Shown one piece after another: positions 36,954 to 42,478 of a stretch of DNA of 64,000 nt. This DNA is from Acidobacteriota bacterium. Its GTDB lineage: Bacteria; Acidobacteriota; Vicinamibacteria; Marinacidobacterales; Marinacidobacteraceae. The stretch spans positions 510 through 64,509 of the forward strand of contig VXNL01000047.1 of NCBI GenBank assembly GCA_009840635.1. The letters are read 5' to 3'. A model generated the notes under the pieces. That model did no database searches. It was not told the DNA's origin and was given only the letters and a program-made list of their open reading frames with translations. The position numbers and the translations under genes were made by a program. Position 1 is the stretch's first letter; every line of letters begins with the position of its first letter.

Positions 36954-38978
36954 TTGAACTCCCTGCTTTGGCTCATCCCGGTACTTCCCGGGGTGGGTGC
37001 CGCGATCAACGGTCTCTTCGGTAAGCGCCTCGGCAAGCGGCTCAGCGGCCTGCTCGCCTGCGGGTCGGTCGCCGCCTCCTTCCTGATCGCCCTGGGGTTT
37101 TTCTTCACGGTCTTCCTCGCCGAGGGCGGGGCGTCGGCCAGGGTCGAGCAGTCCCTCTTTTCCTGGATCCCGAGCATGGGGGTGGACTGGGCCTATCGCC
37201 TCGATTCGCTCTCGATGGTGATGACCCTGGTGGTTACGGGAATCGGCCTGCTGATCCACATCTACTCGCTCGGCTACATGAGCCACGACGGGGGCTTCAG
37301 CCGGTTCTTCAGCTACCTGAACCTGTTCACCTTCTTCATGTTGAACCTGGTTCTGGGCGCGAACATGCTGCTCCTGTTCATCGGCTGGGAGGGGGTGGGG
37401 CTCTGCTCTTACCTGCTGATCGGGTTCTGGTTCGAGCGGCCGGCGGCGGCTGCCGCGGGGAAGAAGGCGTTCATCGTGAACCGGATCGGGGACGCCGGCT
37501 TCATCATGGCGGTGTTCCTCACTTTCGTCACCTTCGGGACGCTCGACTTCTACGGCGTGATGGGGCAGATCTCCGCTTCGGAGATGCACGGCGGAGTGCT
37601 GACCGCGATCGGGGTGCTGCTCTTCGTCGGTGCCGCCGGGAAGTCCGCGCAGATTCCCCTCTACGTCTGGCTGCCGGACGCCATGGAGGGCCCGACCCCG
37701 GTCTCCGCGCTGATCCACGCCGCGACGATGGTGACCGCGGGCGTCTACATGGTGGCCCGCAGCGGCGTCCTCTTCTCGCACGCTCCGGCGGCGATGGCGC
37801 TGGTCGCCACGATCGGGGCCCTGACCGCGATCTTCGCGGCGTCCATCGCGCTCTTCCAGAACGACATCAAGAAGGTCCTCGCCTACTCGACCGTCTCGCA
37901 GCTCGGGTACATGTTCCTGGGCGCCGGCGTCGGGGCCTTCGCGGCGGCGATCTTCCACCTGATGACCCACGCCTTCTTCAAGGCCTGCCTCTTCCTCGGT
38001 TCCGGCAGCGTGATCCACACCATGGAGCACGCCGAGCACGCCTCCGGCGGGCATCGCCACTACACCGAGATGCAGGACATGCGGAACATGGGCGGCCTCG
38101 CCCGCTACATGCCCCGGACCGCGTACACCTTCATGATCGCGACCGTCGCGATCGCCGGCATCCCGCCGCTCGCCGGGTTCTTCAGCAAGGACGAGATCCT
38201 CTGGAAGACCTTCGAGGGCGGCCACTTCGCCCTCTGGGCGCTCGCCGCGGCGGCCGCCGCGATGACCGCGTTCTACATGAGCCGACAGGTGATCATGACC
38301 TTCTGGGGCGACTTCCGGGGCGGCGCGGCGATGGAGAAGCATCTCCACGAGTCGGCGCCCTCGATGACCGTCCCGCTGATCATCCTCGCGGCCGGCTCGG
38401 TGGTCGCCGGCTTCGTCGGCGTCCCCGCGGCGCTCGGCGGGGCGAACCGCATCGAGCACTTCCTCGAGCCCGCCATCTACGCCGGCGGTCACGGCCCGGC
38501 CCCGATCCCCCACGCCTCCTATGCTGTCGAGTACGCCCTGATGGCGCTCTCGGTGGCGCTGGCGGCTGCCGGGATCCTCTTCGCCTACCGCCGCTATTGG
38601 ACCGGGCCGACGCGGGACTCGGCGCTCGCCGGGAGCCGCGCCTACCGCACGCTCCTCAACAAGTACTACGTGGACGAGATCTACGACGCGACCGCCGTCC
38701 GGGGCACGGTGCGCGGCGGCGAGGGCCTCTTCCGGTTCGACCAGAAGGTGGTGGACGGCGCCGTGAACGGCTCCGCGTCGCTCACCCGGCTCACCGGGGA
38801 CCTTTCCGATCTGAGCGATCAGAACCTCGTGGACCGGGCCGTCAACCTGGTCGCCGAAATCCTGGCCGCCGCGTCCACGCGGTTCCGGCGGCTCCAGACC
38901 GGGCTGTTCCAGAACTACGCCCTCCTCATGTTGTTCGCCGTGGTCCTGCTGGCCGGGGCCCTCACCCTTTGGAGCTAG
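36954..38978 (+). CDS. nuoL: NADH-quinone oxidoreductase subunit L (proton-pumping antiporter-like subunit)
   Basis: 674 aa with a TTG start and characteristic NuoL/ND5 sequence ([29 protein letters not shown]). Confidence 0.9.
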
Positions 38979-39028
38979 CCAGCCCGCATGAACACCGCGA
39001 CTAGCGCTGCCAGCTCCGGATAAGCCGA

Positions 39029-40618
39029 ATGTTCGAGAACAACCCCTTCAACTTCCCGATCCTGTCGCTGGTGGTCTTCTTCCCGGCGATCGCGGCGCTC
39101 TTCATCCTGTTCTTCGTCAAGAAGACCGATGAGGACCGGGTCCGCTGGCTCGCGAACGGCGCGGCGCTCATCGGATTCCTGATCTCCCTGCCGCTGTGGT
39201 TCGCGTTCGACGCGGCCGGGCCGCAGTTCCAGTTCGGAGAGCGCTACGAGTGGATCCCGAGCATCGGCGTCGAATACAACCTCGGCCTCGACGGAATCAG
39301 CCTGCTGCTGGTCCTCATGACCACGCTGCTCGGCTTCATCGCCATCCTGTCGTCGTGGAAGGCGGTCACCGAGCGCGTCAAGCAGTACTACGTCTTCCTG
39401 CTGTTGCTCCAGACGGGAATGCTCGGCGTCTTCGTGGCGCTCGACTTCTTCCTGTTCTACGTGTTCTGGGAAGTGATGCTGGTCCCGATGTACTTCCTTA
39501 TCGGGGTCTGGGGCGGCCCGAGGAAGCTTTACGCGGCCATCAAGTTCTTCCTCTACACGCTGGTGGGAAGCGTCCTGATGCTGCTCGGCATCCTGGCGCT
39601 CTACTTCGCCCACCATGGGGCGACCGGCGAATACACCTTCGACCTGCTCCGCCTCATGGAGACCTCCTACGCGTCGGGTCTCCAGTTCTGGGTGTTCCTC
39701 GCCTTCTTCATCGGGTTCGCGATCAAGGTCCCGATGTTCCCGTTCCACACTTGGCTTCCCGACGCCCACGTCGAGGCGCCCACCGCGGGTTCGGTCATCC
39801 TGGCCGGGGTGCTGCTGAAGATGGGGACCTACGGTTTCGTGCGGTTCTCGATTCCGCTCCTGCCCGAGGCGAGCCGCGAAGCGGTGTGGTGGGTCGCCAC
39901 CCTCGCGATCATCGGGATCATCTACGGAGCCCTCGTCGCTCTGGTCCAGAAGGACTGGAAGAGCCTCGTCGCCTACAGCTCGGTGAGCCACCTCGGCTTC
40001 GTGATGCTCGGCGTCTTCGCGCTGAACACCCTGGGTCTCGAGGGTGGCATCCTCCAGATGATCAACCACGGTCTCTCCACGGGAGGACTCTTCCTGCTCG
40101 TCGGCATCATGTACGAGCAGCGCCACACGCGGGACATCGCGGCCTACGGCGGGATCGCCAAGGTGGTGCCGAAGTACGCCGCGCTCTTCCTGATCATCGC
40201 GCTCGCCTCCATGGGTCTTCCGATGCTCAACGGCTTCATCGGCGAGTTCCTGATCCTGCAGGGCGTCTTCCAGGTGGACTGGGTGTATGCCGCGTTCGCC
40301 GTCTCGGGCATCGTGCTCGGCGCCGCCTATCTGCTGTGGCTCTACCAGCGGGTCATGTTCGGCAAGCTGGACAAGGAAGAGAACAAGACGCTCGCCGATG
40401 TGACCAGCCGCGAGAACGCCACCCTGGTCCCGATCGTCGCGCTCTGCATCTTCATCGGCGTCTATCCCAAGCCGTTCCTCGAGAAGCTCGCCGTTCCGGT
40501 GGCGGCCATCGTCGAGCGCGTCTCTCCCGAGAGCGCGCAGACCGCCGAGGCGCCGCCGATGCCGGCCGAGGTGGAGGAAGAGCTTCGGGGCGCCGCTCCC
40601 GTTCCGAGCGACGACTGA
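39029..40618 (+). CDS. nuoM: NADH-quinone oxidoreductase subunit M
   Basis: 529 aa with NuoM/ND4 conserved blocks ([40 protein letters not shown]). Confidence 0.9.
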
Positions 40619-40651
40619 TCCCGCGGCTGTTCCACTTGCCTCGGCGGGAGA

Positions 40652-40918
40652 ATGCCGCCGATGACCCCGGAGCCTCCGGTGGCGCCGCGTGCCCGGCTGC
40701 TGACCCTGCTGAGCCTCGGCTTTTCGGTGCCCATGGCGATCGTGATCGGCGGCGGGTCCGGCTGGCTGCTCGACCGCTGGCTCGGAACGGAGCCCTGGCT
40801 CTTCCTGGTCTTCCTGGCCTTCGGAATCGTGGCCGGGCTCAGGAACGTGGTTCGGGCCGCCTCCGCGGTGGCGGACAGCGACGCGCCGCCTGAGGATTCT
40901 GGGGGAGAGGGGTCATGA
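40652..40918 (+). CDS. AtpZ/AtpI-family small membrane protein (putative F0 assembly/accessory)
   Basis: 88 aa with two TM helices, immediately upstream of the atpI-like gene and atpB. Confidence 0.6.
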   Translation: MPPMTPEPPVAPRARLLTLLSLGFSVPMAIVIGGGSGWLLDRWLGTEPWLFLVFLAFGIVAGLRNVVRAASAVADSDAPPEDSGGEGS

Positions 40919-42077: not shown

Positions 42078-42112
42078 TTCGGCCGCGTAATCAGTTCAAG
42101 GAGAAAAGAATC

Positions 42113-42436
42113 GTGTCCAAGAAGTTTCGGACGACCCTGCTGGCTGGCCTCGGCGTGCTCGCCGCGTCCCCGGCCTTCGCCCAAGGGGCCTGGGACCCGG
42201 TAGTCAGTCAGTGGGCGCTGATCTCGGCAGGTGGCGCGATCGCCATCGCCGCCGCCTTCGGCGCCACCGCGCAGGGACGCGCGGTGGTCGGCGCCTGCGA
42301 GAGCCTCGCCCGGAACCCCGGCGCCGCGCCGCAGATCCGCTTCTCGCTGCTTCTCGGTCTGGTGCTGATCGAGTCCCTCGTCATCTACGCCTTCGTCACC
42401 GCGCTCATCATCTTCTTCGTTCTCTGGAACGGCTGA
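42113..42436 (+). CDS. atpE: F0F1 ATP synthase subunit c, with an N-terminal signal-peptide-like extension
   Basis: GTG at 42113 with an AAGGAGAAAAG SD 8 nt upstream. The c-subunit hairpin GAIAIAAAFGATAQGRAVVGACESLARNPG...LLLGLVLIESLVIYAFVTALIIFFV is present. An extra N-terminal ~35 aa reads KKFRTTLLAGLGVLAASPAFAQGA. Confidence 0.88.
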   Translation: MSKKFRTTLLAGLGVLAASPAFAQGAWDPVVSQWALISAGGAIAIAAAFGATAQGRAVVGACESLARNPGAAPQIRFSLLLGLVLIESLVIYAFVTALIIFFVLWNG

Positions 42437-42445
42437 GTCGGAACT

Positions 42446-42478
42446 GGTGTGAAACGGGCGAGCAGCCCGTTTCACACC
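42446..42478 (+). terminator. rho-independent terminator after atpE
   Basis: ggtgtgaaacgggc-GAGCA-gcccgtttcacacc forms a perfect 14-bp stem, starting 10 nt after the atpE stop. Confidence 0.6.

Follow-up and report, generated by a model that had tools for sequence, protein, structure and literature searches.

Why would an acidobacterial genome keep nuoL and nuoM, the genes of two antiporter-like subunits of respiratory complex I, with no other complex I gene beside them, and then continue directly into the first genes of an ATP synthase? The question is raised by a stretch of 64,000 nucleotides of contig VXNL01000047.1 from an Acidobacteriota bacterium (assembly GCA_009840635.1, positions 510 to 64,509 of the forward strand), referred to here as the window. 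In its middle, nuoL and nuoM are followed by atpZ, atpI, atpB and atpE. The original prediction, made from the letters alone, offered two answers: either the genome splits both its complex I and ATP synthase operons and joined two of the fragments, or the locus encodes a distinct ion-translocating membrane module. Our analysis points to a plainer answer. With a probability of roughly two in three, this would be ordinary respiratory machinery whose unusual layout came about by descent, the junction of nuo and atp genes being inherited and nuoA-K and nuoN having been lost from the site.

The six genes lie head-to-tail on the + strand. The first, nuoL (36954-38978), encodes 674 aa with PF00662 and PF00361 domains and matches the NCBIfam NuoL equivalog NF005141; nuoM (39029-40618, 529 aa) matches NF004499 and TIGR01972. 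They are followed by atpZ (40652-40918), encoding a small membrane protein of 88 aa from the AtpZ/ATPase_gene1 family (PF09527, E = 2e-15), atpI (40915-41364, 149 aa, AtpI/UncI family; PF03899, 32.9 bits against a cut-off of 25.1), atpB for Fo subunit a (41388-42077, 229 aa; PF00119, E = 1.5e-50) and atpE for the precursor of Fo subunit c (42113-42436, 107 aa; PF00137, 45.4 against 24). The gaps from nuoL to atpE are 50, 33, -4, 23 and 35 bp in order, so that atpZ starts 33 bp past nuoM and overlaps atpI by 4 bp (ATGA). The start codon of atpE is GTG, 10 nt after AGGAG. All six reading frames have strong third-position GC bias, in a window of about 68-70% GC, and a terminator scan found no terminator-like site between nuoM and atpZ. 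The block is one co-directional unit, and its genes are probably co-transcribed. Pfam, NCBIfam and tblastn thus bore out the gene content and order first read from the letters. With reference proteins as tblastn queries, no further match to NuoB, NuoCD/C/D, NuoH, NuoI, NuoJ, NuoK or NuoN was found in the whole 64 kb, and none elsewhere in it to the ATP synthase b, delta, alpha, gamma, beta or epsilon subunits; nor is there any PF00361 gene in the window besides nuoL and nuoM. The claim that neither nuoA-K and nuoN nor atpF, H, A, G, D and C accompany the block holds therefore for the full window, and the latter six do not follow within a few kb, or indeed within 21 kb, of it.

Are the two proteins true subunits of complex I? 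NuoL scores 709.8 bits with NF005141 (cut-off 556), and NuoM scores 613.7 with NF004499 (cut-off 585) and 645.7 bits with TIGR01972 (cut-off 263.8), while both stay far below all cut-offs of the NCBIfam models for Mrp, Hyf, NdhF3 and Fpo proteins. The best match of NuoM in the PDB is the NuoM of Paracoccus (8qby_M, E = 1.5e-144), and those of NuoL are NdhF1 and NuoL (6hum_F, E = 1.4e-140). The proton-pathway motifs can be read in the translations: FWEVM, AIKVP, LLKMG and IGEFL in NuoM (Glu of transmembrane helix (TM) 5, Lys of TM7, Lys of TM8 and Glu of TM12), and WEGVG, NRIGD, GKSAQ, HAATM, FFKAC and SKDEI in NuoL, with all charged residues present. By the E. coli numbering, we take these to be the charged residues of TM5, TM6, TM7, TM8 and TM12, the Asp of TM6 and the KD pair belonging to NuoL. 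Judged by their sequences, NuoL and NuoM are genuine complex I subunits. Readings as Hyf or Fpo proteins were excluded by the NCBIfam scores together with the gene neighbourhoods. The ratio of non-synonymous to synonymous substitution rates (dN/dS), calculated against the related locus L093, is 0.185 for NuoL (whose orthologue is 84% identical) and 0.154 for NuoM. The comparison genes give 0.124 for AtpB, 0.145 for AtpE, 0.28 for AtpZ and 0.30 for the neighbour MtnA, and AtpI, at 0.50, is the fastest-evolving gene of the block. Against a second related locus, L006, NuoM is the best-conserved gene of the region (77%). The pair is not decaying; it is under purifying selection.

Was the junction of nuo and atp genes made at this locus, or was it there before? 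For this question, 80 NuoM-centred loci were fetched from species-representative genomes (related loci bear L-numbers in this text) and all nuo and atp genes were mapped onto them; 66 loci, mostly from Acidobacteriota, are informative in having enough downstream sequence. All the data are metagenome assemblies, gene calls in the loci are our own or those of the collection, and the trees are neighbour-joining trees from ungapped columns. The dominant layout is nuoB-CD-H-(I)-J-K-L-M-N without nuoEFG, and in 38 of the 66 informative loci atpZ-(atpI)-atpB-atpE lies within 5.5 kb downstream of nuoM, beyond nuoN. For example in L022, which was followed gene by gene with Pfam, the order is nuoB-CD-H-I-J-K-L-M-N-atpZ-...-atpB-atpE, again with no nuoEFG, and then comes an ECF sigma factor, not atpF. 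In L090, the closest canonical relative (NuoM 66% identical), likewise checked with Pfam, it is nuoC-D-H-J-K-L-M-N-atpZ-atpI-atpB-atpE, and the c subunit has 102 aa. The layout is also met in genomes labelled Udaeobacter/Verrucomicrobiia and Limnocylindria (L050, L065 and L066). Since 38 of 66 loci have atpZ-(I)-B-E behind a nuo cluster, the junction is inherited: it is ancestral in Acidobacteriota and not newly joined. Thus the suggestion of two split operons with joined fragments is half right. Both operons are split, but no joining is needed, for the junction is ancestral and the nuo genes were lost later.

How does the window differ from these relatives? With the acidobacterial clusters that lack nuoEFG and carry atpZIBE (L090, L022, L024, L029 and L032) it shares the order L-M-...-atpZ-I-B-E with no atpF after it, the position of atpZ, an insertion of 26 aa in NuoL and a predicted signal-peptide leader on subunit c, and the identities are 60-66% for NuoM, about 50-57% for NuoL, 44-52% for AtpB and 48-51% for subunit c. 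Unlike them, it has no nuoB-K upstream and no nuoN between nuoM and atpZ, and an SDR gene and a palindromic element stand upstream of its nuoL. The break in the atp operon between subunits c and b has been documented for Acidobacteria. Koumandou and Kossida (2014, PMC4154653) described a split F1Fo operon, I-sI-a-c; b'-b-delta-alpha-gamma-beta-epsilon, in Acidobacteria, Aquificae, Deferribacteres and delta/epsilon-proteobacteria. The window agrees with it in breaking after c and in having small PF09527 and then PF03899 genes before a and c, whereas that paper makes no mention of a nuo linkage or of a signal peptide on c; nothing directly relevant to a nuo-atpZ linkage was found in the searchable literature. 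Two further observations belong to this survey. In L007, L037, L050, L065, L066 and L067 a second nuo cluster, with a NuoL helix of standard length, converges on atpE from the opposite strand, so that the Fo a and c genes lie between two sets of complex I membrane-arm genes. A 750-aa 'NuoM' (P0030) was set aside as an assembly artefact with an internal duplication.

How far does the reduced layout reach? The exact NuoM of the window is encoded, in the same gene order, in the sponge-microbiome acidobacterial metagenome-assembled genomes GCA_009836105.1 and GCA_009844305.1 and in the ENA 'ENGE20' assemblies. Among the best 120 homologues of NuoM, about 38 protein clusters share 86-98% identity with it and roughly a further 40 share 73-81%. 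Contigs of 2.9-5.3 Mb carry some of them, and one member bears the label Vicinamibacteria in one source. Ten loci have no nuoK upstream and no nuoN downstream of the L-M pair, with NuoM 65-100% identical: the window itself, L093 (90%), L092 (86%), L006 and L086 (77%), L088 (75%), L091 (71%), L089 (69%), L010 (68%) and L008 (65%). Their NuoM sequences form one neighbour-joining clade (76 of 100 bootstraps) nested among canonical acidobacterial sequences, and their NuoL sequences adjoin those of canonical Vicinamibacterales clusters. L013, from a Terriglobia chromosome, is an independent case. The six-gene block and mtnA remain together in the window, L093, L006 and L086, and upstream the flanks vary: most of the clade has VWA (-) and MoCF (+) genes there, and L092 and L093 have a glycine-betaine-type ABC transporter instead.

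What follows the pair is more variable. In L089, L091 and L010, unrelated genes come after nuoM. In L088, a complete atpZ-B-E-F-H-A-G-D-C operon follows nuoM (11683-18961), with a and c subunits only 30-40% identical to the window's and a beta subunit most similar to Verrucomicrobia. This operon is foreign because the relatives of its beta subunit are Verrucomicrobia-like, and for the same reason the beta subunit was dropped as a lead to the native F1 genes. L008 has an atp operon of a different, Verrucomicrobia-like type 2.5 kb downstream of nuoLM (13695-15693). In the operon type of L088 and L008, subunit c is 76-82 aa long without a leader, and subunit a is 30-33% identical to the window's. 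Such similarity suggests replacement by horizontal transfer at the same site. Because downstream content varies within the clade, the stable unit is nuoL-nuoM, and atpZIBE is an inherited neighbour of it that has been lost in some members. We also note an ENA contig of 7.5 kb (L004) whose NuoM is identical to the window's, whose AtpZ is 95% identical and whose TsaD is only 83% identical, which points to strain-level mosaicism or a chimeric assembly.

What kind of Fo do the atp genes encode? Subunit a keeps the conserved Arg, in LSVRLFGN, and scores 122.7 bits with TIGR01131 (cut-off 102.6), against 116 with the alternate (N-type) F1Fo model, whose cut-off is 302. For subunit c the alternate-F1Fo model gives 46 against 131. 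Its TIGR01260 score is also below the cut-off (32.4 against 43.95), because of divergence, while its Pfam score lies above. The ion-site residues of subunit c are Q54, E87 (the helix 2 carboxylate), S88 and Y92. They match four of the five Na+ ligands of Ilyobacter (Q32, E65, S/T66, T67 and Y70; the offset of 22 was checked on the match to 1yce), and the T67 equivalent is L89. The Na+ motif, which it had been proposed to inspect, is therefore incomplete. A Na+-coupled c-ring was rejected on this Leu and on the H+ c-ring of chloroplasts (22vl), in which the same ESL.IY motif occurs. A reading as an N-type ATPase was rejected as well: the operon atpDCQRBEFAG of that type also has AtpI-like small membrane proteins before a and c, and its c shares Q, E, S and Y at these positions, but its gene order is different, the window holds no F1 genes, and both the Thr67 equivalent and the alternate-F1Fo models fail. 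H+ coupling is the more likely reading of these residues.

Subunit c has a further peculiarity at its N-terminus. Read as a sequence pattern, residues 1-23 (nt 42113-42181) consist of a basic n-region (KKFR), a hydrophobic core TTLLAGLGVLAAS and a PAFA|QG end; the predicted cleavage is AFA|Q24, which would give a mature subunit of 84 aa. An extension of about 35 aa resembling a signal peptide had been noticed before. Its character stands, and its length shrinks to a leader of 23 aa, or about 27 aa relative to chloroplast c subunits, whose residues 1-2 align with residues 28-29. About 35 relatives share the pattern M(R/K)K-hydrophobic-(P)AFA|Q. Essentially all c subunits encoded in atpZIBE clusters of relatives have it, and the c subunits of foreign type in L088 and L008 lack it. 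Because the leader is conserved in relatives and the mature part is collinear with chloroplast c, the extension is, on its sequence, a putative Sec-type leader of a wider ATP synthase lineage and not a peculiarity of the locus; it would be cleaved. Nothing directly relevant to a cleavable signal peptide on a bacterial c subunit was found in the searchable literature, and a signal peptide on c of this ATP synthase type was not found stated there.

The NuoL protein carries a trait of its own. It is collinear with the NuoL of Thermus thermophilus and Mycobacterium smegmatis, with the C-terminal lateral helix HL and the anchor helix TM16 intact, apart from an insertion of 26-27 residues in HL, placed by direct alignment at about residues 607-633 (nt about 38772-38852); the 26-27 residues are unmatched in HMMER alignments to both references. 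The insertion resembles a repeat of the segment 'VDGAVNG'. From YxDExY to QxGxxxxY, where TM16 begins, the NuoL of the window and most others of its cluster type have 76 aa. Standard NuoL, among them those of the second nuo cluster in the same genomes, have 51-53 aa, and those of L008 and L010 have 87-88 aa. The NuoL of L089 and L010 have an extra insertion of about 10 residues (GDGEVRPGL) in HL on top of the 26-aa one. A longer HL by about 26 residues has been described for the '2M' complex I, where its presumed role is to reach across an additional, fourth pump subunit (Chadwick et al. 2018, ISME J, as cited in PMC9040806 and PMC6606698). The window agrees with the '2M' enzyme in this length and in related clusters that lack nuoEFG, and differs in having no second nuoM at the locus; nor do most related canonical clusters have one, two tandem nuoM genes being found only in L054 among the loci mapped. 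The canonical L-M-N clusters L090 and L022, as well as L054, have the 26-aa insertion in common with the window, and because the canonical clusters carry it, the insertion is not proof of a fourth subunit. Yu et al. gave the same caveat for Manganitrophaceae (PMC9040806). A search of the 64-kb window showed a single nuoM and, besides nuoL, no further PF00361 gene. A full-length HL indicates that NuoL still clamps further subunits, and from this we infer that at least nuoN is encoded elsewhere in the genome.

These observations suggest the following scenario. Ancestrally in Acidobacteriota, the front half of Fo, atpZ-atpI-atpB-atpE, comes right after nuoB-CD-H-I-J-K-L-M-N without nuoEFG. In one marine or sponge-associated clade close to Vicinamibacteria, nuoA-K and nuoN would have been removed from the site, and the distal pump module genes L and M alone would have been left in front of atpZIBE. 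NuoL and NuoM would be joined by Nuo subunits whose genes lie at other sites, NuoN at the least, in a proton-pumping complex I in which the lateral helix of NuoL is 26 residues longer, as in '2M'-type enzymes. AtpZ and AtpI may assist in forming the c-ring; AtpI is known elsewhere as a c-ring assembly factor. The initial product of atpE would be a precursor of subunit c bearing a cleavable Sec-type signal peptide, whose removal would leave the N-terminus on the periplasmic side, in keeping with the established topology of all F-type c subunits. Subunits a and c would make up the Fo channel, of H+ type, and cooperate with b, delta and F1 subunits whose genes also lie at other sites. The novelty at the locus is the loss of every nuo gene but the L-M pair, while the long-helix NuoL and the c leader are wider acidobacterial traits. 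There is precedent for coding L- and M-type subunits apart from the core, in the non-operonal nuoL and nuoM of Nitrospira (PMC6606698) and in the ndhF3/ndhD3 operon of cyanobacteria (PMC12435202).

Several points weigh against this scenario. That the partner genes lie elsewhere in the genome is itself what we infer, and the L-M pair may be the only one of its genome or an extra copy. When the genes were traced by protein search, nuoA-K and atpF-H-A-G-D-C were not found for any clade genome, and a nuoN of the clade was not traced among the best 120 matches to the NuoN of L090, the lowest of which has 59% identity. A group of 485-aa NuoN candidates was discarded, coming from a canonical forest-soil cluster and not from the clade. 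The NuoL sequences of the L-M-only loci are not monophyletic in the neighbour-joining tree (11 of 100 bootstraps). In L092, nuoL-nuoM-atpZ-atpI is kept (11627-14086), and tblastn found no atpB or atpE in the locus of 21.6 kb, so that the block is not inviolable; the a and c genes seem to have been lost there through a deletion or rearrangement. As for transcription, a sigma-70 promoter scan returned no site, a result uninformative at 68% GC in an acidobacterium, and the hairpin behind atpE has no U tract after it and was not called by the terminator scan.

Might the pair instead be an accessory or exchangeable distal pump module? On this explanation, the long-helix NuoL and NuoM would be extra subunits beside one or more complete nuo operons, co-expressed with Fo, and could replace or extend the distal end of the enzyme to four antiporter-like subunits as in '2M'. 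Among the alternatives it survives best, and it is possible though unlikely. The HL insertion fits it, being linked with a fourth pump subunit in PMC9040806 and PMC6606698. So do the two nuo clusters lying side by side in many Acidobacteriota (L007, L037, L050 and L065-L067), and PMC11636273 reports a 2M complex I for Acidobacterium capsulatum. A lone nuoM occurs, without nearby nuoL, nuoK or nuoN, in three Terriglobia/Bryobacterales genomes (L081, 5609-7129; L083, 3384-4850; L085, 10001-11530), in a clade adjoining the canonical NuoM of Bryobacterales; these genes might supply a second, dispersed NuoM to long-helix, '2M'-like complexes. Also in favour is the place of the cut, between L and M on one side and N on the other, a known boundary between the modules of complex I. 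The cyanobacterial NDH-1 modules (ndhF3/ndhD3/cupA/cupS and ndhF4/ndhD4/cupB) likewise keep L- and M-type genes together and apart from the core (PMC12435202); the cut falls between the same modules there, the gene of the N homologue remaining in the core set. Their exchangeable NdhF/NdhD pairs would be an analogous case. These modules differ in having Cup-type proteins and several alternative pairs, for which the window locus gives no evidence, whereas the window has all NuoL proton-pathway residues and the linkage to Fo genes. Against the accessory explanation stand the insertion in canonical clusters already mentioned, which deprives it of proof by itself, and the close relative L093, which lies on only a 2.88-Mb contig and speaks weakly against redundant respiratory sets. 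Moreover, no second NuoM of the same genomes appears among the 120 best homologues, a list that falls short of the identity range of paralogues.

A neighbouring proposal, that complex I is here built from dispersed genes with the long-helix NuoL-NuoM as a separate distal pump module co-transcribed with Fo a and c, appears doubtful. If it were true, the module would either supply the missing L and M to a core set or bring an already complete enzyme up to four pump subunits, and the H+/e- ratio would be tunable together with Fo synthesis. The placing of nuoLM before two unrelated types of atp operon, the native split one and the Verrucomicrobia-like one of L088 and L008, would then mean selection for co-expression beyond history.

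Could NuoL and NuoM work independently of complex I, as a stand-alone cation/proton antiporter or a CO2-hydration-type system (Mrp-like or DAB-like)? The PF00361 family does include Mrp and DabB, and in 10 related loci no other nuo gene accompanies the pair, whose downstream neighbours vary. It is very unlikely all the same. Mrp models reach 260-310 bits against cut-offs of 920-1117 (158-310 against 542-1117 for the MrpA and MrpD models overall), no mrpB/C/E/F/G or other mrp gene, DabA or Cup-like gene lies nearby, and no DabA (PF10070) neighbour is present in the window or the 10 related loci. The long lateral helix and TM16 of NuoL, which clamp neighbouring subunits, are kept, and both proteins closely resemble subunits inside canonical nuo clusters, NuoM at 60-66% identity and NuoL at about 55%. 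It is scarcely credible that NuoL and NuoM act physically with Fo a and c as a hybrid machine. The adjacency is kept in the window, L093, L006 and L086, and a Verrucomicrobia-like atp operon stands behind nuoLM also in L088 and, at 2.5 kb, in L008; but this adjacency goes back to the nuoN-atpZ junction seen in canonical relatives and is lost in L089, L091 and L010, subunits a (44-67%) and c (48-52%) are ordinary orthologues of the relatives' subunits, and a and c need F1 and b for any known action, with no linking protein present. Thus the idea of a distinct ion-translocating module finds no support, because all six proteins have close orthologues among the usual complex I and Fo subunits of relatives, the helices HL and TM16 of NuoL are kept, and in sister lineages the pair stands before different and even unrelated genes. 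Finally, that nuoL and nuoM are decaying, non-functional leftovers of a lost second complex I, as the disappearance of all neighbouring nuo genes from the locus might suggest, is effectively refuted: the frames are intact and full-length with all catalytic charged residues, their dN/dS of 0.15-0.19 matches the low values of atpB and atpE, and the pair is kept across a clade spanning 65-100% NuoM identity.

Preferring, then, ordinary machinery in an inherited layout, where does the block begin and end? Upstream, the SDR gene and the miniature inverted-repeat transposable element (MITE) reported earlier are both present. The latter is a palindromic, MITE/REP-like element of 167 bp (36638-36804) in the 397-bp spacer between the SDR gene and nuoL, an inverted repeat with arms of 53 nt that are 85% complementary and 61 nt apart. 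Its core GGAACGCCGGC has 4 copies in the window against 0.26 expected, and is found also at 5019 and 51960. The element marks the upstream boundary of the block and is not part of the respiratory genes. Downstream, a GC-rich hairpin lies right after the atpE stop (about 42435-42488, + strand), with a stem of 24 pairs, a dG of -46.4 kcal/mol and z = -7.1, none of 200 shuffles folding as well. It had been described as a perfect 14-bp hairpin and a strong terminator. The hairpin is there, its perfect arms are 15 nt long (42445-42459 and 42465-42479, inside the longer stem), and a terminator role is no more than plausible with no U tract; it is a probable transcript end or RNA-stabilising structure. 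The spacer from atpE to mtnA is rich in repeats (42493-42649): a 24-nt sequence, GGAACGCCGGTCTCYAGACCGGCA, which is itself a small hairpin, stands as a direct repeat on either side of a 19-nt inverted repeat, with 0 matches expected by chance. These repeats and the upstream element have a GGAACGCCGG core in common.

The 30 flanking genes have, by Pfam scans, functions unrelated to the block. Upstream are VWA (-), MoCF, DksA and SDR genes; downstream are mtnA, tsaD, a RuBisCO-like/cupin gene, a class II aldolase gene (-) and a large helicase gene. Some of these make a group of their own, resembling methionine salvage (42732-47364), with MtnA (IF-2B family), TsaD, the RuBisCO-like protein with its cupin and, on the opposite strand, the class II aldolase. 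The RuBisCO-like protein, of 521 aa, has a RuBisCO-like large-chain domain and a C-terminal cupin, and the fusion may combine two salvage steps. Next to the group, a protein of 1126 aa (47309-50689, -) joins PD-(D/E)XK nuclease, RNase H-like and superfamily 1 helicase (AAA_11/AAA_12) domains, and a PIN-domain gene (54106-54510, -) lies near it. In L092, small unassigned open reading frames follow atpI, and then come the SSF/DHDPS genes that in the window lie 14 kb further on.

What does the locus mean for the Acidobacteriota? A tempting false lead is removed, for this is not a new ion-translocating machine. We did not find it stated in the searchable literature that many Acidobacteriota, and some genomes labelled Verrucomicrobiota or Chloroflexota, carry a nuo cluster without nuoEFG that runs straight into the genes for Fo assembly and for subunits a and c, nor that a marine and sponge-associated acidobacterial clade keeps only nuoL-nuoM there, under strong purifying selection. 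The cut made in this clade falls exactly at a module boundary of complex I. This should be useful in annotating metagenome-assembled genomes, where calls of 'incomplete complex I' are common. While current understanding is not overturned, the finding bears on how respiratory complexes are assembled from dispersed genes.

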